A DNA stretch of 64,000 bases from an uncultured Bacteroidia bacterium (GTDB lineage Bacteria; Bacteroidota; Bacteroidia; Bacteroidales; ML635J-15): NCBI GenBank assembly GCA_902800045.1, contig CADCCZ010000002.1:332131-396130 (forward strand), read 5' to 3'. Below the pieces are notes generated by a model. That model saw nothing but the letters and a program-made list of their open reading frames with translations. It ran no database searches and was not told the origin of the DNA. The position numbers and the translations under genes are program-made. Positions 2,776 through 46,961 of the stretch are shown here, piece by piece; position 1 is the stretch's first letter, and each line of letters opens with the position of its first letter.

Positions 2776-3264
2776 TTATTTCATCCGCAAATAGCAGTCC
2801 TTGAAATCCTTGAACCGCTCCATCCAGTGGCGTTCTCGTTCTCGTGTAAACTCGTCGCGCTCGATGGTGGAGTAGTCGTCGAACTGATGCAGAATCTGGA
2901 AATTGCCGTCGTCGTGATGCTGTGCGGCAGTGAGTTCGGCAAGCGGTGAATCGGGCTGCTGACCTATGTGGTGTAGTTCGTACGGGTCGCCATTCTCGTC
3001 GTGAGGTGGGTAGCCTTCGCCCATAAGGTCGGCATTGCACCAGTCCCAGTATTCGGGATGCTTGTGTCCGTACCAGTTGCGGCAGTTGTAGGCCTCGCCG
3101 ACGATTGTCGGATTAAGCAAGGCGGCCTTGCCGTTGACGCGACCTTCCTTAAGTCCTGCCGAAATATAAACATTTGCTTCGTCCATGTCGCGGATGTAGT
3201 CAACTATTGCCGACGACCAGCTGGTTCGAAGCTTTAGTGTCATTTTTTCTAAGGTTGATAACAT
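2776..3264 (-). CDS. Stand-alone HNH/EndoVII-fold nuclease, LHH-type toxin-like domain
   Basis: The C-terminal half contains PYELHHIGQ...LAELTAAQHH...GNFQILH, resembling the LHH clade of HNH/EndoVII nucleases from polymorphic toxin systems. Possible ATG starts are 3264 or 3243. The TTG-extended ORF to 3378 runs through a tandem repeat and is unlikely to be coding. Confidence 0.5.
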   Translation of the reverse strand: MLSTLEKMTLKLRTSWSSAIVDYIRDMDEANVYISAGLKEGRVNGKAALLNPTIVGEAYNCRNWYGHKHPEYWDWCNADLMGEGYPPHDENGDPYELHHIGQQPDSPLAELTAAQHHDDGNFQILHQFDDYSTIERDEFTRERERHWMERFKDFKDCYLRMK

Positions 3265-3290
3265 ATCTAAGTGTGATTTAATATTATTTG

Positions 3291-3350
3291 TGGTTGTTTG
3301 AAGTTGTTTGAAGTTGTTTGAGGTTGTTTCGGATTGTTTGAGGTTGTTAG
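3291..3350. repeat. About six tandem copies of a 10-bp unit GTTGTTTGAR, plus one inverted copy at 3371-3385
   Basis: Read directly: ggttgtttga agttgtttga agttgtttga ggttgtttcg gattgtttga ggttgttaga. The inverted copy cacctcaaacaacc lies 20 bp further on. The array sits between the DUF1232 stop (3421) and the nuclease start. Confidence 0.85.
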
Positions 3351-3420
3351 ACCATTTCAAACTTATAAACCACCTCAAACAACCATAAACTTTGAATTAT
3401 TGAAATTATAACCAATAGAT

Positions 3421-3729
3421 TTATGCAAACAAATTTGCAATTCCGACCACCACAAGTGCAATAATTGCGATAATTAAAATTCCAAGCACTATCAGAACCC
3501 ATTTGATGCCCTTGACAATCTTTGCAAGGTGCTCGTTGGACTCTTTGAGGTACGACTGGATAAGATTTAAGCCGCCCGTTACTGTAATCAGTATATCGTC
3601 AACCCATCCTGCAACGGGAATGACATCGGGCAAAATATCAACAGGCGATATGGCATACAATACAGCGATTACGCCCCAAATCCACGCACCAACGTGCGAT
3701 ACTTCTCTTTTTTCTAAATCTTCTGACAT
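3421..3729 (-). CDS. DUF1232 (YkvA-like) small membrane protein, copy 1
   Basis: DUF1232 signature YAISPVDILPDVIPVAGWVDDILI plus a C-terminal TM helix. The ATG at 3729 lies 2 bp after the stop of the upstream zinc-ribbon ORF. Confidence 0.8.
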   Translation of the reverse strand: MSEDLEKREVSHVGAWIWGVIAVLYAISPVDILPDVIPVAGWVDDILITVTGGLNLIQSYLKESNEHLAKIVKGIKWVLIVLGILIIAIIALVVVGIANLFA

Positions 3730-3731
3730 AT

Positions 3732-3938
3732 CTATTTCCTTTCTTCCATTTGTTTCCAAATATCTTCGTAAGTTGACTTGCTCAGGAACGACATTAATCC
3801 CCACGGCATAGTCCTTATGCTCTGGCAGTGTGGACAAGGCTGTGGAACCGAAAGCACAGTGGCGTTCAGTTCAATATCGTCTGCGCGAAATTTTTCGCCG
3901 CATTCGGTACATTTGAATATTCTTTTTCCTCTAATCAT
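3732..3938 (-). CDS. Small zinc-ribbon protein (CxxC...CxxC)
   Basis: 68 aa with KCTECGEKF and PCPHCQS cysteine pairs. Tightly coupled to the downstream DUF1232 gene. Confidence 0.55.
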   Translation of the reverse strand: MIRGKRIFKCTECGEKFRADDIELNATVLSVPQPCPHCQSIRTMPWGLMSFLSKSTYEDIWKQMEERK

Positions 3939-4090: not shown

Positions 4091-5395
4091 TTACATATCC
4101 TCAAGCGAAAGTCCCACGAACTCAATATTCCAATTGCGGTGCTTGGCGACTATGTCAATAGCCTTGTCTTTCAGTGTATTAAGGTTTATTCGTTTTGCTT
4201 GTCGCTTACATTCGGCCACGACCAAATGCTTGTCAACTTCGTTAACTGCAATCATATCTATTTCATTTCCGCCACCCTTCCAATAGTTGATAATTATGTT
4301 ATAGCAGCCCTTTTCGGCATATAGCTGATGAAAATAACGTTCAAGCACAAATCCCGAAAATGTATCATAGTCGGCAAACACCTTGTCCTGCACATATTCA
4401 AGATTACCAATCTCAATGGCGCTACGATACTTATGGACAAATCTAAACCAAAATGTCAGAAAGTTATCGCGAATAAAATATTTCACACTGTGGGTGTTTG
4501 GCGACTGCATATAGGCTCTGTGCCGATTCAACAGGTTGTAGTTCTTTTCTAGTTTGTCAAGGTAACCGCCTGGCTCAATTCCCGTAACATTCTTGATGTT
4601 GCCACGTTCCGTATTTCCATCTGCAATAGCCTGAAGTATTGAAAAATAATTGGAATACTCCTTGCCAAATTCATCGCGAAGCATTTCGTAACCTTCGGTG
4701 ATGAAATACGACCCGAACGAAAAAACCGAACGAATCATATCGTCTTTTGTAAAAGCATTGTCCATAACCAATTGCTCAACATACTTTGCAACACCACCTG
4801 TGAGCATATAAAGCGTAAGAAGGTCATCGGAATTATAGTTTGGGTTTCCATCGGCAAGTATCTCTTTCAAGGTAGATATCTTGAAAGGCTTCAAATTGAT
4901 TCGACTGGTTGCCCTGCCATATAGAGGTTCCTTGGAATCGTCGAAAATCTTTGTCATCATCGAGTAAACCGAACCGCAAAGCACAAGATTCAGCTTGCTG
5001 TCGTCCTTATTGGCATCCCAAATATTCTGGATGTCGGAAAAAAGGGCAGGATTGGCATAGTTTAGATTCTGAAATTCGTCGAGCACCAATGTGAAGTTAA
5101 TGCGCTTGGATAGGTTCATTATCGCATTGAAAAGTCGCGAAAACGATGAAAAATCTCCAATATCCTCATTCAGTACATAGCGTACATTCTCGCAAAGTTC
5201 GGCACAAAGCATGGCTTCGCTCTTGCGTGTTACAAAGAAGTAAACGAAAGGAATCTCGGCAAACGAATGCCTAATCAAAGATGTCTTTCCAATCCGCCGT
5301 CTTCCAGTTACTACTGTCATCTGTGCGTATTTTGCCGACTTCTTTTCAACACCTTTCAGAGTCTCAGTCTCTATCTCTCTGTCATAAAACTTCAT
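4091..5395 (-). CDS. AAA ATPase of the archaeal-ATPase/DUF234 family
   Basis: FYDRE start, Walker A GRRRIGKTSL, Walker B LVLDEFQ, LYGR, and DNFLTFWFRF. The C-terminal nuclease-like DUF234 region has EIDMIAV...AECK. Confidence 0.85.
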   Translation of the reverse strand: MKFYDREIETETLKGVEKKSAKYAQMTVVTGRRRIGKTSLIRHSFAEIPFVYFFVTRKSEAMLCAELCENVRYVLNEDIGDFSSFSRLFNAIMNLSKRINFTLVLDEFQNLNYANPALFSDIQNIWDANKDDSKLNLVLCGSVYSMMTKIFDDSKEPLYGRATSRINLKPFKISTLKEILADGNPNYNSDDLLTLYMLTGGVAKYVEQLVMDNAFTKDDMIRSVFSFGSYFITEGYEMLRDEFGKEYSNYFSILQAIADGNTERGNIKNVTGIEPGGYLDKLEKNYNLLNRHRAYMQSPNTHSVKYFIRDNFLTFWFRFVHKYRSAIEIGNLEYVQDKVFADYDTFSGFVLERYFHQLYAEKGCYNIIINYWKGGGNEIDMIAVNEVDKHLVVAECKRQAKRINLNTLKDKAIDIVAKHRNWNIEFVGLSLEDM

Positions 5396-5535: not shown

Positions 5536-5853
5536 TTAAAATAACTTTTCACACACTACCACAACAGCAAGCGCAATGACAACCAATGGTGCAAATCCTA
5601 TCACTATCCACTTGATGCGCTTAACCATCTTTGCAAGTGCTTCGTTTTTCGGCATCAGGTACGACTGGACAAGGTTGATGATGCTTATTGCCACTACAAG
5701 TATATCGTCCACCCAGCCGTATGGGGTAATGACATCTGGAATGAAATCCAGCGGTGCAATTGAGTACAATACGGCTATCGCAATCCAAAGCCACGCGCCT
5801 GCGTGTGGCGAAACGCTCTTTCCTCTCGATAAAATTTCTGTTTTGTTGGTCAT
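5536..5853 (-). CDS. DUF1232 (YkvA-like) small membrane protein, copy 2
   Basis: YSIAPLDFIPDVITPYGWVDDILV plus a C-terminal TM helix. By eye about half the residues are identical to copy 1. ATG at 5853. Confidence 0.8.
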   Translation of the reverse strand: MTNKTEILSRGKSVSPHAGAWLWIAIAVLYSIAPLDFIPDVITPYGWVDDILVVAISIINLVQSYLMPKNEALAKMVKRIKWIVIGFAPLVVIALAVVVVCEKLF

Positions 5854-5933: not shown

Positions 5934-5964
5934 AAAAAAGCCACCGCAAATAATATGCGATGGC
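5934..5964 (-). terminator. Rho-independent terminator after the dynamin operon
   Basis: Minus strand reads GCCATCGC-tattattt-GCGGTGGC followed by TTTTTT, 9 bp after the stop at 5973. Confidence 0.6.
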
Positions 5965-5972
5965 TATAGAAA

Positions 5973-8003
5973 TTACAATAGAATCTTATTGATTTCGGTA
6001 GTTTGCGTTTCTATTGTTTCAATATTAGATTTTAACGAAACAAGTTTCTGATTAATCTCTCCGATTCTCTTTTCCTTGTCAGTTTTCTTACCCTTACATT
6101 CTTTTATTTGTTCTTTCAAAGGATTGATAAGACCATCAATGAATTCTTCTTTAACAAAGTTAATAATCTTGTCTTTTTTGTCTAATATCCTGTCAAGTAA
6201 TGGATCTGGATCAAAAGATGTACTAATATCAGATATGTTGCGTTTCACATCATTTACAATAGAACCATGAGAGAGAGCATTAATTATTGGTCTGAATTCC
6301 CAGAAAACACTTTTAAATATAATTTTAATTATTCCATCATCATCTAAAGCAGTTATGTCTTCGTCAAAAAGATTCTTGCTGTCAATATCCATGTCTAGTT
6401 TTGTTGTAACATTCTTAATGAATGATTCCGAATCGAAGTCTTCAATATTATTGTCAAAAATAATCTGAACATCATCAAAGAATGCTGATATTGTTGATTT
6501 CAGCTTTCGTTCGGTATTTTGACTAAGGTCCAATAAGGTTCTTGGTAATCGCCTTTTTTTCAGGTAGTCTAGTTCATTGTCCAATTTAGTGCTTAGATTT
6601 TCTGATCTTTCAAACCTACCCCAAGCGTCCACAATACTATTCATTTTTTGGCATGAAGCATCTACAATATCTTCTAAATCGTTTTTACCTTTTCTGATAG
6701 TTGCCTTAAAGTCAGATTCCAAATCATCACCAAGACTATTTATCTTTCTGTTCAGACGCCTCTCCGCCTTTTCAAGTTTTTCTTCTCTTTCTTCTAGTTC
6801 GGAATCAGGCAGATTCAAAAGTTTCAATTCGTTTTCAAGCAAATCCTTTTCCTTTATAAATTCCGTTTTTTTGCTTTGACCCGCAGCTTTTATTGCATTT
6901 AATGGTTTTGCTATCAATATCGCATTTTTCTCCTTATCAATCATATCCTGTATTGCACGAATAAGGTTGTCAATGTGGCTTCTTTGCCTCATTTCCGATT
7001 GCGATGATATTTCAAAATTACCGCAATGTCTTTTCCAGATGTCACTATAAATGATGTCGGAAGAAATTTTACTCATTGGTATTTCGGAAAGAAGTGCCAT
7101 CTCTGCCGACAATGTGATTGGAGTGGTTTCCTTAAGTATGCTATTGATAGTATCGTCACCCAATTCTTGACTGGCCTTTCTGATTTCTCGCGAAACATAG
7201 TTTATAATATCGTCTTCCGTATCTCCATTATTATATGGAATGTCGTATTTATTAATACCTATGAGAACTTTTCCTATTCCGCATGATTTTACATTCTTGA
7301 ATAGAATATCCCTGTCCGTAGAATCAAATGGACGTCCTGCATACAACATAAGCAGAACGACATCCGCCTTCTTCAAAAAATCCTTCGTGCGCTCTTCACG
7401 AGAGACAATAGGGTCGTTAAACCCTGGAGTATCAACAATCTCTACGCCCTTGAGATATTCCTTCGGATAATATATTGTAACGGATTTTGTTATCGAAACA
7501 TACTTTCCTTCTGCACCAACATATTCTACAAGATTTTCAAAGTTATCTTCTTGTGTTTTGCCAAGATATTTTTCAACATTCAGTCCCGATGATTTCTCAA
7601 CAAGTTCTTTAGCTGCTTTTATCTTTGATTTTTCCGAATCGCTTAAATTTTCCTCATTAGGATTACGGCTGGCTGTCATTTTCTGCTCGTTCCACTCATT
7701 GCTGTTGTAAAACTCGGCAACTATTCTCTTGCGTTCCCCGTATGTGATTACCGACAACGCCGCTGTCATTGGCGTTGTTGCTGCAGGAAGAACATCATCC
7801 TCGAACACAAATGAATTCAAGAAAGTTGATTTTCCACATTTCATCTGACCAATAACTCCGATACATAAAGTGTCGTTGTCAAGTTTTTCTATTATCTCAT
7901 TTTTGCGTTTTTCGTCAATCCATCCATATTTGTTCGCTTTTTCTGCAAGCGACTTCAGATTTTCTTTTTTTTGCCTTATTTCTTCAAAAAAATTCTGTGC
8001 CAT
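5973..8003 (-). CDS. Bacterial dynamin-like GTPase (DLP-3), soluble with a long helical stalk
   Basis: G1 GQMKCGKST, G3 DTPGFND and G4 NKYD, followed by about 400 aa of helical, charged sequence. Confidence 0.85.
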   Translation of the reverse strand: MAQNFFEEIRQKKENLKSLAEKANKYGWIDEKRKNEIIEKLDNDTLCIGVIGQMKCGKSTFLNSFVFEDDVLPAATTPMTAALSVITYGERKRIVAEFYNSNEWNEQKMTASRNPNEENLSDSEKSKIKAAKELVEKSSGLNVEKYLGKTQEDNFENLVEYVGAEGKYVSITKSVTIYYPKEYLKGVEIVDTPGFNDPIVSREERTKDFLKKADVVLLMLYAGRPFDSTDRDILFKNVKSCGIGKVLIGINKYDIPYNNGDTEDDIINYVSREIRKASQELGDDTINSILKETTPITLSAEMALLSEIPMSKISSDIIYSDIWKRHCGNFEISSQSEMRQRSHIDNLIRAIQDMIDKEKNAILIAKPLNAIKAAGQSKKTEFIKEKDLLENELKLLNLPDSELEEREEKLEKAERRLNRKINSLGDDLESDFKATIRKGKNDLEDIVDASCQKMNSIVDAWGRFERSENLSTKLDNELDYLKKRRLPRTLLDLSQNTERKLKSTISAFFDDVQIIFDNNIEDFDSESFIKNVTTKLDMDIDSKNLFDEDITALDDDGIIKIIFKSVFWEFRPIINALSHGSIVNDVKRNISDISTSFDPDPLLDRILDKKDKIINFVKEEFIDGLINPLKEQIKECKGKKTDKEKRIGEINQKLVSLKSNIETIETQTTEINKILL

Positions 8004-8024
8004 AATATTTGTGTGTTGCTTAAA

Positions 8025-9854
8025 TTACTTATTTAATTTGTTGATTAGTCCTATCAGTTTGCTCTGATGCAATTCCATCTCCCTTAATATTGCCTTGCAA
8101 TCCGACAAATCTTCATGCGTTTTTTGCAACCTTTTAGCAGCTTCAACATTCTCACTGAATATTTTTTCGACTTGCGGAACGTCATCATTTGATATTGATT
8201 CTAGAACGTTTACTAATCTATCACCTTCAGATTTAGACATTTTATATTTATCTTCTACAAACCAACGTGTTTTCAAATGGGAACAAAACTCTCTTATTGT
8301 ATCTTGGCATTTGTTAGACATTGACTTAAGCCCCGCATAGAAAGAATTTTCTTTCCATTCACAATTCTTTCGTGCGTTTGAATGTTCAGAATTTTTCCTA
8401 TTAACATTTTCCCTTAAAATAGACAGACAATTAGGAATAAGATTATTCACAAGACTATTTACATAGTTTTCAGAATCAGCACTTCTCCTAATAGACTTTA
8501 CAACATTCATTATTGTGTCAATCTGTGCTGTTTTTGAGAATCGAATGTACTGCTTCGGCACAACACCCTCCCTTGCAAATGTCTGCTTTATTAGTTGTTC
8601 AACCCTTTCTACCTCTTTTTCTGCTTTGGTGTCGGTCTTGTTTATTACAACATACAGAGGTTTTTTTAGTTTTTCCTTTATCAAGGCAAGTGAACTTCTG
8701 TTTATCGTACCTGTGTTTACATCGACAACCCAGAATAAGGCATCACACTCGTTTATTACACCAAGAGTCCTTTCACTGTCCTCCTTGTCGTTGGAGTTAA
8801 ATCCAGGGGTATCAAGAATGCTCATACCGTTCAAATTAGGATTCTTGTAGGTCATTACAAAATACTGTATAAGCGAAGATATTCCTTTTACTTGATTTAG
8901 AACTTCCTTGTTCACCCTACTGAAAGTTTCCTTTGAAATTGTCTTTAGGATATTATCCGGTGAATACAAGCAATAAGTTGTTGTTATTCCACCTGATATA
9001 TAGGTAGGAATAGCGGTTGTCGCCTCTGTGCTCACAGGTAGCAACTGGGCACTTGCATCATTCTGCGAAAGAATTCTATTCACTATTGATGTTTTTCCTG
9101 CCGAAAATTCACCGACAAAGGCAATCTTTACTTTGCCCTGTACCCAATGCTTGCTGGCAATTTCTGCCCATTCGTTAAGCTGTGGACCAAAATAATCGTT
9201 CCATTTTGCCGAACCTTCTCTTATATCATTGAAGTTCTTGGAAACGAATGGCTCAAGGTCTTCTTCGATGTAGTCCTTTATTTCCCTAATAGCCTTTATG
9301 CGTTCGGAATAAGACTTATCATCGGCACGTTTTGCAGTCATAACTTCCTGAACAAATGAAAGAGATTGTTTCTTTAGTGATATTTCCTCTCTTGCCTCAT
9401 TTAATGTGTCCTTTGTTTCTTGAAGTTCCGATGAAATCTGCTTGTTCTTATTCTCCAGTTGCCCTATTATTTCATCTTTTTCGGCTTCAATTTTCTTTGT
9501 TTTTTTCTTCTGGTCGTCACATTCATCCTCAAGGTCTTCAATTTCATTTTCAAGTTTCTTGATTTTTTCCTTCGCCTTGGAGATTTCGTCTTTAAGCCTA
9601 TCTTCCTCATCGGATGTAATTGTTACATTACCGCCCTTTTCTACTGTTTTCAGTTTTTCCTTCAACTCGGAATATGCCTTTTCTTTTTCGGATAATGCTT
9701 GTTTTAACGATTCGATCTCATTCTTGTGACTTGATTTGTCAATATTGTTTTGCTGCGTATTTTTCCTTGACATTAGTTTTACCACAACAAATACAATTAT
9801 TCCGCCAAGGATGGCAGCCCCTATTGTCAATAAAATTATGTTAGTGATATTCAT
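8025..9854 (-). CDS. Membrane-anchored coiled-coil / dynamin-like GTPase (DLP-2)
   Basis: N-terminal TM helix (ILLTIGAAILGGIIVFVVV), about 150 aa of E/K-rich heptad coiled coil, then G1 GEFSAGKTS, G3 DTPGFNS and G4 NKTD. Confidence 0.85.
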   Translation of the reverse strand: MNITNIILLTIGAAILGGIIVFVVVKLMSRKNTQQNNIDKSSHKNEIESLKQALSEKEKAYSELKEKLKTVEKGGNVTITSDEEDRLKDEISKAKEKIKKLENEIEDLEDECDDQKKKTKKIEAEKDEIIGQLENKNKQISSELQETKDTLNEAREEISLKKQSLSFVQEVMTAKRADDKSYSERIKAIREIKDYIEEDLEPFVSKNFNDIREGSAKWNDYFGPQLNEWAEIASKHWVQGKVKIAFVGEFSAGKTSIVNRILSQNDASAQLLPVSTEATTAIPTYISGGITTTYCLYSPDNILKTISKETFSRVNKEVLNQVKGISSLIQYFVMTYKNPNLNGMSILDTPGFNSNDKEDSERTLGVINECDALFWVVDVNTGTINRSSLALIKEKLKKPLYVVINKTDTKAEKEVERVEQLIKQTFAREGVVPKQYIRFSKTAQIDTIMNVVKSIRRSADSENYVNSLVNNLIPNCLSILRENVNRKNSEHSNARKNCEWKENSFYAGLKSMSNKCQDTIREFCSHLKTRWFVEDKYKMSKSEGDRLVNVLESISNDDVPQVEKIFSENVEAAKRLQKTHEDLSDCKAILREMELHQSKLIGLINKLNK

Positions 9855-9858
9855 TTAC

Positions 9859-10230
9859 TTACTTTTTTAATGATTCAACTTCATTTTCCAACGATTTTAC
9901 AGCGAGACTATATTCTTCTACTTTGAGTTTCAACTCAGAGTTTTCTGCAGACAGAGCCTTTATCTTCCTTTTTGCCGCATCCATTTCATCTTCAAAGGAA
10001 TCATTGTCTTCATCCCTTTCTTTTAACTGGCGGTAAAGTTTTTTGTTCTCGGCAAGCAAATCTTCAACCTGTCGTTCAAAATCTCTATTTCTGTTGCGAA
10101 ACTTTTCGTTTTCCCTATAAAGTTCGTCGATTTCTGTTCTTTTTTCGTTAGACGGCTGCTGTCCAGTAAATTTACCGATTAAATACCCAACCGACAATCC
10201 TAATATTGCAGTTATTATAATTCCTACCAT
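9859..10230 (-). CDS. Single-pass membrane coiled-coil protein
   Basis: 123 aa. N-terminal TM helix (IIITAILGLSVGYLIG) followed by a charged heptad-rich sequence. Resembles the N-terminal module of DLP-2. Confidence 0.7.
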   Translation of the reverse strand: MVGIIITAILGLSVGYLIGKFTGQQPSNEKRTEIDELYRENEKFRNRNRDFERQVEDLLAENKKLYRQLKERDEDNDSFEDEMDAAKRKIKALSAENSELKLKVEEYSLAVKSLENEVESLKK

Positions 10231-10245
10231 AATTTTTCTCCTTAT

Positions 10246-12003
10246 TTATAACATATTCCTATAGTTACGTAATTGTGTCATCCTACGTTCAAACTCATCC
10301 TGATTTGCTTTGCGTTGCTCGGCAAGTTTCTGTAGAATCTGATTTTTTTCTGTAATTGTTGTTTCCGCTTCTGCATACAAAACTGTACTTATTCCATTCA
10401 CAATCTCATTTCCAATACGGTCTATTTCGGCTTTAAATGCAGGCATCAATGTCGAATCAACATAATTGTTAATTGCTCTTATTCTTTGCGGTTTACCCAT
10501 TGTGGCATCTGTAATCTTTCCAATAAGATTTCCGAGAACACCGCCATTTTTCTTTTCTATGGATTCTGCTTTTTGTTGCACTTGAGATGCCTTAGACAAT
10601 GCTCTTCCTGCCAATGTAAGTTCTGTACCTTCGATAAGCAGAGTTGAAGTGCTGATACCACTTGCTGCTCCAGAACCTGCCGCTCCTGCTGCCGCAGTTC
10701 CCGATGCTCCTAAAACTGCGGGGGCAGCCGCAACTGCAGCAACTGCAGCTATACCAATTACGCCAATCTTGATTGCATTATCATATTCGTGTCCTGCTTC
10801 ATTTAAATTCATTCCGTAACCTATGCCAGACATATCAAAATCAGGCAAGGAAATGTTATTTAGCGACTGGATATTTACGCTATCATTACCCGAAAGCGAA
10901 GTGGCTTTTGTCTTTATTGCTTGACGTACATTGTTCTTGAACTCGTTTTGCAATAATGTTGCAGTGTTGTTTATCGCACTTATTGCTTCCGCATCATAGT
11001 TAATTCCTTTGGCTGTTGCAATTGAATTTAAACGAGAAACAATGGAATCCTGAAAATGGCGAGAAACATTTCTTCCTATTTCTTCTATGTCGCCTGTTGA
11101 ATCGGATATAAGCCTGTTTATGCTTCTGTTGAAATTGTTTAGTTCTGCTTTGTGCTTCTTGATGCTTTCTTCCAATTCATCATCAGAAGAAGAAGATACC
11201 TTCAACATTTCATCTATGCAACTTTTCAATTTCTCCGAAGCAAGATTCATTCTTTGTTCATTTACTTTTTTTAAGATATTGTTTTTCTCTGCCATAATCG
11301 ACTGGAACAAATCGTACAATTGCTGTACATCGTTGTTTTTGGCTGAGACACAAGCCGTCTGTTTTATATCAATTTCGCAATTTTCAGATATGTATTTCTT
11401 TTGAGCCTCAACTTCTTTTTGTGTCTTAGTATCGCATTTTGTTATAACTAAAAACAAAGGTCTGTCAGACAATTTCATAGTTTTAACGAACTCTGTCAAC
11501 GAGCGAGTTATTGGCTGGTTTACATCAATTACCAATATTATGCCATCAGCTTGTGGCAAAAAGTTTACAAGTGCCTGCTTGTGTCGTATATCAGGAGAAG
11601 AAAGTCCTGGAGTATCAACAATTACTGTTGTTGATGGAACTCTTTTTGATGTATCGTGTACAAGAACGAAAGGATTATTGCCTAATTTGTCATTCTTTAA
11701 GTCGGCAATATTGTCGTAGTGCGTAGATTTGCCCTCCTTATCGAAAACTTCAGCGCAACAAGAATCACAGCCAAAATGAACTTCAAAAATTGTTGCCGTG
11801 GTAGGGTCAAAATTTGTTTCAAGTTGCTTGCTATCTGTTAAGGCATTTATCAATGTTGTCTTTCCAGAACTAAATTCACCCACAAATGGTAAAATCAAGT
11901 CGCAATCTGTTTTCGACATTTTTACCTTTAATTGTTCCAATTCTTTTGTAATTGTTTCTGCATTAATCTCCTTTGAGATTTCGATTAATTTGTTTATTTC
12001 CAT
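10246..12003 (-). CDS. Bacterial dynamin-like GTPase (DLP-1) with a Gly/Ala-rich hydrophobic paddle
   Basis: G1 GEFSSGKTT, G3 DTPGLSS and G4 TKCD. The hydrophobic segment IGVIGIAAVAAVAAAPAVLGASGTAAAGAAGSGAASG sits within the helical C-terminal half. Confidence 0.85.
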   Translation of the reverse strand: MEINKLIEISKEINAETITKELEQLKVKMSKTDCDLILPFVGEFSSGKTTLINALTDSKQLETNFDPTTATIFEVHFGCDSCCAEVFDKEGKSTHYDNIADLKNDKLGNNPFVLVHDTSKRVPSTTVIVDTPGLSSPDIRHKQALVNFLPQADGIILVIDVNQPITRSLTEFVKTMKLSDRPLFLVITKCDTKTQKEVEAQKKYISENCEIDIKQTACVSAKNNDVQQLYDLFQSIMAEKNNILKKVNEQRMNLASEKLKSCIDEMLKVSSSSDDELEESIKKHKAELNNFNRSINRLISDSTGDIEEIGRNVSRHFQDSIVSRLNSIATAKGINYDAEAISAINNTATLLQNEFKNNVRQAIKTKATSLSGNDSVNIQSLNNISLPDFDMSGIGYGMNLNEAGHEYDNAIKIGVIGIAAVAAVAAAPAVLGASGTAAAGAAGSGAASGISTSTLLIEGTELTLAGRALSKASQVQQKAESIEKKNGGVLGNLIGKITDATMGKPQRIRAINNYVDSTLMPAFKAEIDRIGNEIVNGISTVLYAEAETTITEKNQILQKLAEQRKANQDEFERRMTQLRNYRNML

Positions 12004-12012
12004 GATATTATT

Positions 12013-12450
12013 TTAATTGTATTTTATCGTTTTAAGAAACTCTTTTAGATTATTGAGTACATCATTCCTATTAAGTATTTTTATCAAATCCATATTATCT
12101 ATTTCCAAAGAATCTTCCATGTCATATAGTAAAGTATTTATCCATTTAACAAAATAATTTATTTTTCTCCTTTTATTACATTTGGTATATGGTATTAGAG
12201 AGTTGCATAAAAATATTAGGGATTTTAATTGATTTTTTATTTTCAAAGTACGTTTACTTCCAAAACTAATAGCACATGATTTATCGTACTCTTCTATGCA
12301 TTGAATAATTGTTTCAGTAATGTTGCCTATTTTAGATATAATAATATGCTTATTTGCTGCTTTGAAATTAATTAGACCAGAAATTCCAATGATAGCACAT
12401 ATTGACGCAATAATTGAAATTATAGAACTAATAATGTTTAATGATTCCAT
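12013..12450 (-). CDS. Hypothetical small membrane protein, first gene of the dynamin operon
   Basis: ATG at 12450 and an N-terminal TM helix (IISSIISIIASICAIIGISGL). Very AT-rich. Its stop lies 9 bp from the DLP-1 start. Confidence 0.5.
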   Translation of the reverse strand: MESLNIISSIISIIASICAIIGISGLINFKAANKHIIISKIGNITETIIQCIEEYDKSCAISFGSKRTLKIKNQLKSLIFLCNSLIPYTKCNKRRKINYFVKWINTLLYDMEDSLEIDNMDLIKILNRNDVLNNLKEFLKTIKYN

Positions 12451-12524
12451 GATATTAAATTTTTTGTCATTATTTCTTTTATTCCTTAAAAAAAATTGAG
12501 CGTGTTCCAACTATCCTTCATTTC

Positions 12525-12809
12525 GGTTGGAAAGGCTCTGGAAAACCCGTAATCGCAAAAAGAAGAAAGCAGTCCACGCCCATGATGGGTGCGTACGGTT
12601 TTCGAACTACCTGCGCGATTACTTGTAAAAAGCTTCCAGACTTCTTCCAATCGCTAAGCATAACGAAACGTACTCCTAACGTTGCTACAAAGATATAGAA
12701 ATATTTACGATTTACGAAGTACGATTTATGATTTTTTTTGAGACCAATCCAGATGTCAAACAGTCTAACAGAAGACTTGTCGGGCTGCAAGCCTGTTAGC
12801 CTGTTAGCC
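12525..12809. repeat. Mosaic intergenic repeat block, left of the AbiE cassette
   Basis: ggttggaaaggctctggaaa (12525-12544) is the exact reverse complement of 14389-14408. cctgttagcctgttagcc (12792-12809) is a near reverse complement of 14498-14514. cgctaagcataacg also has an inverted partner near 14426. Confidence 0.8.
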
Positions 12810-12835
12810 ACTCAAAAAAACTTGTCAATTCAAAA

Positions 12836-12843
12836 TATATTTG
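12836..12843 (+). promoter_or_regulatory. Candidate -7 box TAtaTTTG upstream of abiEi
   Basis: Matches the Bacteroides TAnnTTTG consensus, 50 bp before the ATG at 12893. Confidence 0.35.
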
Positions 12844-12892
12844 TAATTTTGTGAGCCTATAATAAAAATAAATTTTATTTCTAGCTTTAAAA

Positions 12893-33636: not shown

Positions 33637-33709
33637 TCGGGGTGAGAAGACTCGAACTTCCGGCCTCTACGTCCCGAACGTAGCGCGCTACCAACTGCGC
33701 CACACCCCG
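33637..33709 (-). tRNA. tRNA-Pro (anticodon CGG)
   Basis: Manual fold gives acceptor CGGGGTG/CACCCCG, D arm GCGC-AGTTGGTA-GCGC, anticodon arm CTACG-TTCGGGA-CGTAG, and T arm GGAAG-TTCGAGT-CTTCT. No encoded CCA. Confidence 0.9.

Positions 33710-46871: not shown

Positions 46872-46961
<90 letters not shown>

Follow-up and report, generated by a model that had tools for sequence, protein, structure and literature searches.

Can three dynamin-like GTPases encoded side by side in one bacterial operon be parts of a single membrane-acting system, and what might such a system do? The question is raised by positions 5973-12450 of a 64,000-nucleotide stretch of DNA, here called the window, on contig CADCCZ010000002.1 (assembly GCA_902800045.1) from an uncultured Bacteroidia bacterium of the order Bacteroidales. 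Bacterial dynamins have been described as singletons, pairs or fusions, and cooperation within the pairs is debated; the view of the field is that bacterial dynamin-like proteins (DLPs) exist as 'at least a genetic pair'. A preliminary description of the locus, made from the sequence, saw in it a five-gene operon with three paralogous DLPs and proposed a system for membrane-level defence or repair. We find that the operon contains a conserved, mobile, heterotypic dynamin module at the cytoplasmic membrane, hereafter the cassette, which comprises DLP-A, a small coiled-coil protein (CC123), DLP-B and DLP-C. By analogy with characterised systems, this module may protect its carriers against phage or membrane damage.

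The three GTPases and their coiled-coil partner

The operon consists of five genes on one strand (Table 1), in the order gene 1, DLP-A, CC123, DLP-B and DLP-C. The spacings of 9, 15, 4 and 21 bp between them, and the intrinsic terminator that closes the operon, were noted at the outset and are confirmed by scans for open reading frames (ORFs) and terminators. Three of the products carry complete dynamin-type G motif sets, exactly as first quoted: GEFSSGKT / DTPG / TKCD in DLP-A, GEFSAGKT / DTPG / NKTD in DLP-B and GQMKCGKS / DTPG / NKYD in DLP-C. Dynamin_N is the best Pfam family for all three, with scores of 80.1 bits for DLP-C, 68.7 bits for DLP-A and 66.6 bits for DLP-B against a gathering score of 27 bits. 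Since the fold matches are likewise to DLPs, an Era/EngA/YeeP-type identity, which had been named as the alternative, is rejected. Across 67-75 homologues per family, the G1 P-loop, the switch I Thr, the DTPG motif and the (N/T)KxD motif are conserved at 80-95% or more, and all three proteins are therefore probably active GTPases. Among homologues of DLP-C, the motifs GQMKCGKST, TPMTA, DTPGFNDP and NKYD are nearly invariant.

Structural comparisons place DLP-A and DLP-C among the DLPs. AlphaFold2 models were available for DLP-A and DLP-C as single chains, with predicted local distance difference test (pLDDT) values of 72.6 and 72.7 respectively. The top Foldseek matches of DLP-A are BDLP (2j69), Cj-DLP (5oxf/5owv) and IniA (6j72), and those of DLP-C are BDLP, SynDLP, IniA and Cj-DLP1/2. 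For both models the best matches in the PDB have E values of 1e-10 to 1e-13, and mitofusin, Fzo1, Mx and OPA1 come next. DLP-B was placed by profile comparison, in which its core emerges as the closest paralogue of DLP-A (hhalign E=1.4e-54), with DLP-C more distant (~1e-15).

The three GTPases differ in their predicted relation to the membrane. In DLP-A, a Gly/Ala-rich hydrophobic paddle spans residues 408-439 and continues into a low-complexity tail that reaches to about residue 480; the paddle region is disordered in the AlphaFold2 model and lies at 60-80% of the protein length in 57 of 75 homologues. DLP-B begins with a transmembrane (TM) helix, a hydrophobic N-terminal helix being found in 63/75 homologues, and this is followed by an E/K-rich coiled coil; its helical tail is short and poorly conserved. 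The K/R residues that follow the TM helix would, by the positive-inside rule, leave both the coiled coil and the GTPase domain of DLP-B in the cytoplasm. DLP-C has no hydrophobic segment, and the same is true of 56 of its 67 homologues; soluble partners such as LeoA likewise have no membrane element. It is also the most conserved member of the set, at ~50-58% identity across species.

CC123 resembles the N-terminus of DLP-B. Its hydrophobic helix (residues 1-22) leads into an E/K-rich coiled coil, and an N-terminal hydrophobic helix is present in at least 38 of 62 homologues, a count that depends on rough start-codon calls. From the TM helix onwards, CC123 is colinear with the first 148 residues of DLP-B (hhalign against DLP-B 1-230: probability 98.8%, E=8e-17; BLASTP E=7e-5), and it is likely to be a paralogue of the DLP-B N-terminal module. 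The paddle-like segment of DLP-A and the TM helix plus coiled coil of DLP-B and of the 123-residue protein were thus correctly recognised in the preliminary description. Its proposal of two membrane coiled-coil partners holds for one separate protein, CC123, the other being the N-terminal module of DLP-B itself. A likeness of the DLP-B coiled coil to PspA/IM30 was considered and is taken as coiled-coil noise, because it appears as a 'weak' precomputed match in one homologue and there is none in the window protein.

A conserved four-gene unit

One genome per species was scanned for related loci, which gave 80 loci. The window proteins were then run against these by tblastn, and gene order was counted on the 67 loci with enough downstream sequence. 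The order DLP-A, CC123, DLP-B, DLP-C recurs on one strand, with A before B and B before C in 67/67 loci. A small coiled-coil gene lies between A and B in 65 of these, 54 being found by tblastn and 11 being divergent; the latter account for 11 of the 13 tblastn-negative A-B gaps, each holding an ORF of 110-159 residues whose product combines a coiled coil with a Gly/Ala-rich hydrophobic helix at the N terminus. The intergenic gaps across the loci have medians of only 6, 2 and 3 bp, and the divergence of DLP-A, DLP-B and DLP-C from the window proteins is correlated (r = 0.48-0.73).

Gene 1 is ruled out as a conserved component of this unit. It has no tblastn match in 75 other-species loci, with only near-identical contigs matching; in a search of 5.8 billion proteins it finds only its own cluster and is confined to this lineage; and no Pfam, NCBIfam or PADLOC family was found for it. 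Its G+C content of 23.7%, and of 0.19 at third codon positions (GC3), is far lower than in the DLP genes, AT-rich as these are. Either gene 1 was inserted, or replaced another gene, very recently, or it is a fast-evolving orphan gene. It is no coiled-coil partner, and its membership of the system is doubtful. We conclude that the conserved core comprises four genes, since gene 1 is without relatives and the A-CC-B-C order is kept. The initial view of a tight, conserved operon therefore stands, with four genes rather than five as its conserved unit.

A different small gene is often added to the core. In 27 loci the gene directly before DLP-A, with the same orientation, encodes a DUF6140 protein (PF19637, 73 residues, 113 bits), and a DUF6140 gene occurs near the cassette in 38 of ~75 loci (L006-L088). 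The window has none, and the unrelated gene 1 fills this slot there. This protein looks like a fifth, facultative component. A literature search on DUF6140 found nothing relevant.

Both the composition and the distribution of the cassette point to mobility. At 35.1% G+C, the block is poorer in G+C than any other 6.5-kb stretch of the window and lies ~8 points under the window mean of 43.2% (standard deviation 3.0), and its GC3 is 0.31-0.35 compared with 0.42-0.62 in the flanking genes. Carriers among the Bacteroidales include Tannerella forsythia, Parabacteroides distasonis, Prevotella jejuni, Bacteroides heparinolyticus and Alistipes putredinis. Others belong to the Flavobacteriales, Treponema and other Spirochaetales, Clostridia, Flexilinea (Chloroflexota), Gastranaerophilales (Melainabacteria) and Fibrimonadales, and there is one metagenome-assembled genome (MAG) from the Bacillales. 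The spread is patchy across phyla, and most of the carriers are MAGs from the gut or rumen. The block seems to have been acquired horizontally; this had been suggested from its AT-richness by eye, and windowed G+C and GC3 against the flanks, together with the patchy distribution, bear it out. Identical copies of DLP-A occur on rumen metagenome contigs, and the GTDB representative is the uncultured Bacteroidia MAG RUG13712.

The cassette is disrupted in one strain. In T. forsythia ATCC 43037, an insertion sequence (IS) transposase gene splits DLP-A just before the GHEYD/paddle region, and in T. forsythia OH1426 (L009) DLP-A is intact, from which we conclude that the cassette is dispensable. Full-length homologues number in the thousands for DLP-A and likewise for DLP-C, labelled at most 'dynamin family protein' or 'predicted GTPase', and the DLP-C profile alone matches 852 clusters (50% identity) at E<=1e-30. 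Phage, plasmid and IMG/VR sequences were searched for copies of the Bacteroidales-type cassette and gave GTPase-level matches only; a search of a viral fold library returned only giant-virus dynamins.

Table 1. Positions of the operon, its neighbours and related loci. Positions are those of the window unless a locus handle (L number) or accession is given.
Feature	Position	Strand	Description
gene 1	12013-12450	minus	145 aa from ATG; N-terminal hydrophobic helix
DLP-A	10246-12003	minus	585 aa; GTPase ~36-238, helical stalk, paddle, long C-terminal helix
CC123	9859-10230	minus	123 aa; N-terminal TM helix and coiled coil of ~100 aa
DLP-B	8025-9854	minus	609 aa; TM helix 1-31, coiled coil ~200 aa, GTPase ~240-460, helical tail
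DLP-C	5973-8003	minus	676 aa; GTPase ~46-300, then long helical stalk
Intrinsic terminator	5939-5965	minus	10-bp stem with 6 G-C pairs, 7-nt loop, then TTTTTTC; closes operon
Intergenic region	12451-12892		442 bp; between gene 1 and divergent AbiEi gene
dnaA	373-1800	plus	
LHH nuclease protein	2776-3378	minus	200 aa; C-terminal LHH (HNH/EndoVII) nuclease toxin domain
DUF1232 membrane protein	3421-3837	minus	
ATPase_2/DUF234 ATPase	4091-5395	minus	
DUF1232 membrane protein	5536-5853	minus	
tRNA gene	33637-33709	minus	
tRNA gene	46872-46960	plus	
Escherichia coli IncF plasmids	NZ_CP148279; L091:4111-11699		DLP triad, then CFI-box-CTERM protein; adjoins parM and parA
Pseudomonas aeruginosa megaplasmid	NZ_CP133095; L093:4044-11142		DLP triad directly downstream of WYL gene; adjoins EH-signature protein, DEAD/DEAH helicase, IS30 element, integrase
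Photobacterium plasmid	NZ_CP071327; L092:1243-8016		DLP triad between traU and traN
Calditerrivibrio plasmid	NC_014749; L095:5141-10977		DLP triad; Deferribacterota
Ruegeria plasmid	L096:1915-10266		Four 'dynamin family protein' genes
T. forsythia ATCC 43037, split DLP-A	L059:9995-12927		IS transposase gene at 11259-12227
DUF6140 gene (example)	L085:9769-9990		
Sel1-repeat proteins (examples)	L011:16292-16684; L058:18967-19869		
Cluster C5 proteins (examples)	L073:16452-16856; L085:16252-16659		~134 aa, directly after DLP-C
aa, amino acid residues; nt, nucleotides.

Related triads on plasmids

The three-GTPase module has counterparts on plasmids. Plasmid matches to DLP-C lead to operons of three 'dynamin family protein' genes, and since plasmids carry such A/B/C triads, modules of three DLPs are not unique to the window locus. 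The plasmid DLPs were typed with family hidden Markov models built from the Bacteroidales-type loci. In E. coli, P. aeruginosa and Photobacterium they map one-to-one on to A, B and C, whereas the A and B models give about the same score to the paddle-bearing first protein of Calditerrivibrio. The plasmid A-type proteins are ~565 residues long and paddle-bearing, the C-type proteins (706-750 residues) match over their full length with 160-214 bits, and the B-type cores match with 82-149 bits.

The plasmid triads nevertheless differ from the cassette in several respects. Their order is A-C-B (A-B-x-x-C in Photobacterium), compared with A-CC-B-C. The plasmid B-type proteins have no N-terminal TM helix or hydrophobic segment, unlike DLP-B of the window, and no CC123 or DUF6140 gene is annotated in the plasmid triads, whose extra partners are different ones, such as the CFI-box-CTERM protein or WYL. 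What is particular to the window cassette is thus its TM coiled-coil elaboration and its gene order.

Comparison with characterised dynamin systems

Among the closest known systems are Eleos (formerly 'Dynamins'), an anti-phage system, and the LeoABC operon of enterotoxigenic E. coli H10407. Eleos consists of two genes, LeoA and LeoBC (the latter sometimes split), and acts against jumbo phages; its defence requires the GTPase P-loops (10.1101/2022.05.11.491447; PMC4159319), and 60% co-localisation with known defence systems has been reported for it. Eleos and the cassette are both accessory, island-borne, heterotypic DLP operons that combine a soluble with a membrane-anchored DLP. Eleos, however, has two DLPs and no separate coiled-coil protein, whereas the window cassette has three full DLPs, a TM coiled-coil protein and a 200-residue coiled coil before one of its GTPase domains. 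The combination of three full-length DLPs and a TM coiled-coil gene is found in 65 of the 67 loci.

Other characterised DLPs share single features with the cassette. By sequence, the closest solved relative of DLP-C is found in the Cj-DLP1/Cj-DLP2 system of Campylobacter jejuni (5owv_A, 8e-18). These proteins form a heterotypic, membrane-tethering heterotetramer, and their operon includes an HcpA-like Sel1 protein (PMC6104087). They are a pair rather than a triad, without a TM or coiled-coil anchor, and chromosomal in a single lineage. The NCBIfam model for Bacillus subtilis DynA aligns DLP-A and DLP-B to its membrane-binding D1 half and DLP-C to D2, but the DynA equivalog cut-off (NF052648, 1600 bits) is not reached, the cassette DLPs scoring 45-51 bits. 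DynA, which protects against phage and repairs membranes (PMC12998192), is a housekeeping protein in which two DLPs are fused into one chain, in contrast to the three separate DLPs and coiled-coil partner of the cassette. The mycobacterial iniBAC operon, which has been connected with envelope stress and the formation of vesicles (PMC6715688, PMC10240201), also combines DLPs with a non-GTPase partner, the Gly/Ala-rich IniB, and IniA is among the top fold matches. It has two DLPs, however, IniB is unrelated to CC123, and no sequence relationship was found beyond the GTPase domain. Our literature search found no description of a three-DLP operon, of the gut cassette or of the plasmid triad, and searches on dynamin with Bacteroidales defence and on DLP3 or three DLPs returned nothing relevant.

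Possible functions of the cassette

The architecture suggests how the four proteins might work together. CC123 and the coiled coil of DLP-B would form a membrane-anchored scaffold, on which DLP-A and DLP-B, as the closest paralogues, could pair through their G domains. DLP-C may be recruited as a soluble partner, much as DynA-D2, LeoA or the Cj-DLP within their pairs. GTP-driven tethering, fusion or fission by such an assembly would then seal or reshape damaged membrane.

Eleos and DynA, which protect against phage, provide a precedent for such a role (10.1101/2022.05.11.491447; PMC12998192). By analogy with both, we favour the view that the cassette may protect against phage or membrane damage and is accessory rather than housekeeping, although we regard the case as evenly balanced. 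The patchy spread across phyla, the low G+C content, the relatives on plasmids and the inactivation by an IS are more in keeping with conflict genes than with genes for physiology. A wider interpretation is tentative and on the unlikely side: that the A/B/C triad represents an ancient, undescribed three-component dynamin class on plasmids and islands of at least six phyla, of which the gut version with its TM coiled coils would be a new anti-phage or anti-invader system, in which an obligate heterotrimer of DLPs would use GTP to remodel the inner membrane.

The neighbours of the related cassettes bear on these proposals. The genes up to four places from the cassette on each side in ~75 loci, 296 neighbours in all, were scanned with Pfam and PADLOC, and families were read from the 25 commonest listed per side. 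Conflict-type neighbours include WYL regulators, IetA-like AAA proteins, type I restriction-modification systems, PtuA/AriA/GajA-like ABC ATPases, mad3/Fic and TIR proteins, the PDC-S01, PDC-S02 and PDC-S10 candidates, and colicin-DNase and WHH toxins. The neighbourhood survey called for in the preliminary description yielded the constant gene order and some conflict neighbours, and the association with conflict genes appears to be real but moderate. Sel1-repeat proteins form the commonest neighbour family (10/296), and housekeeping genes are numerous.

Several observations weigh against a protective function and the assembly outlined above. Conflict-type genes make up the smaller part of the 296 neighbours, in a survey of raw family counts. 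In one abundant lineage the arrangement DUF6140-A-CC-B-C, with a gene for 135 residues, lies between nuo/bamD/rpoZ and ribH, and the genes directly beside the cassette there are all unannotated. No recognisable sensor or toxic effector is present in the cassette, coiled-coil composition may inflate the similarity between CC123 and DLP-B, and physical interaction of the four proteins is a prediction.

The main rival to a protective role is a general system for envelope stress or membrane maintenance without any immune function, serving repair, outer-membrane vesicles or tolerance of bile or antimicrobial peptides as an accessory trait useful in the gut. The characterised bacterial DLPs are all membrane-acting proteins, several of them responsive to antibiotic or envelope stress (PMC6715688, PMC6104087, PMC4159319), and such roles have been proposed for IniA/IniC, Cj-DLP1/2 and LeoABC vesicle release. 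The gut or rumen origin of most carriers and the position of many cassettes beside housekeeping genes suit this explanation, the Sel1 neighbours echo the HcpA-like Sel1 protein of the cj-dlp1/2 operon, and DUF1232 membrane proteins recur nearby. We nevertheless consider it rather unlikely, given the features listed above as typical of conflict genes and the recurrence of WYL regulators and known defence genes in the neighbourhood. The plasmid triads raise the further idea that the triad serves the biology of mobile elements, in conjugative transfer, entry exclusion or plasmid competition, and that the chromosomal Bacteroidales copies are remnants of integrated elements. The Photobacterium triad between traU and traN, the E. 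coli triad by parM/parA on IncF plasmids, the P. aeruginosa triad by an IS30 element and an integrase, and PDDEXK_2 transposase-like genes in four related loci would all be in keeping with it. It is made improbable by the lack of the Bacteroidales-type cassette from every plasmid, phage or IMG/VR contig searched, by the absence of conjugation or integrase families among the commonest neighbour families listed, and by the frequent occurrence of the cassette alone between core genes.

The similarities to Eleos also invite the simpler explanation that the cassette is LeoA plus LeoBC with one gene duplicated. The PADLOC LeoA and LeoBC profiles do match all three DLPs, with DLP-C matching LeoA (5.7e-18), DLP-B matching LeoBC (4e-12) and DLP-A matching LeoA (1.7e-11), but coverage of the profiles is partial and scores do not exceed the range of 24-63 bits. 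The cassette proteins stay below the cut-off of every curated NCBIfam family; the LeoA/HP0731 family (NF041922, cut-off 325 bits) gives 19.3 bits on DLP-B and no match on DLP-A or DLP-C at E<=0.01. LeoA itself (4aur) is not detected from the cassette proteins by phmmer or hmmsearch, and by fold it ranks 28 for DLP-A and falls outside the top 50 for DLP-C. The plasmid triads score 27-50 bits on the Leo profiles with inconsistent assignment, their C-type proteins matching LeoBC and not LeoA. Membership of Eleos, for which the preliminary description had proposed these profiles as a check, is thus very improbable; from the weak profile scores and the different gene architecture we conclude that the cassette is a relative of Eleos in kind and probably not a member, although an automated Eleos call under the system rules of PADLOC itself is conceivable.

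Of the explanations considered, protection against phage or membrane damage is the one that we prefer. If the cassette is protective, it adds a membrane-level mechanism of defence or repair to organisms whose phage defences are poorly charted, and it gives a partner context to DUF6140, a family whose function is not known. Whatever its function, the cassette occurs commonly in Bacteroidales of the gut and rumen, and a fixed triad with differentiated members is a natural system for studying division of labour in heterotypic dynamin assemblies, which are relevant to fusion machines of the mitofusin/OPA1 type. Its presence in cultured species means that its function could be tested.

Genomic surroundings

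In the window, the cassette lies in an island with dnaA and an EamA transporter on one flank and an FAD-linked oxidase and a type IX secretion system peptidase on the other. The genes between these flanks encode an LHH nuclease, an ATPase_2/DUF234 ATPase with two DUF1232 membrane proteins, AbiEi/AbiEii and a WYL/WCX regulator, and three more are unannotated; the AbiE, WYL, nuclease and ATPase neighbours originally listed are all confirmed by family scans. The ATPase matches the PADLOC defence candidate PDC-S27 at 5e-46. The two DUF1232 proteins that flank it are paralogues, with ~61% identity over the domain, and DUF1232 genes adjoin the cassette in ~7 other loci. Three other loci have WHH or colicin-DNase toxin domains close to the cassette, and together with the LHH domain these hint at polymorphic-toxin or immunity content in these islands.

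Three further families were seen beside related cassettes. An unannotated protein of ~134 residues (cluster C5) follows directly after DLP-C in at least nine species loci, and an acyl carrier (PP-binding) protein follows in 4 loci. In 17 loci a 467-residue protein that belongs to no family (cluster C1) is found on one side or the other.

One or more promoters presumably lie in the 442 bp between gene 1 and the AbiEi gene, where a TAtcTTTG box of the Bacteroides type and a spurious GTG ORF of 97 codons were also seen. A structured RNA or riboswitch, suspected from the Bacteroides-like TAnnTTTG box, is rejected, as there is no Rfam match at E<=1 and the fold z-score is -1.1. The variable island begins ~1 kb from dnaA, which places it near the likely origin of replication. 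Two tRNA genes lie elsewhere in the window (Table 1).

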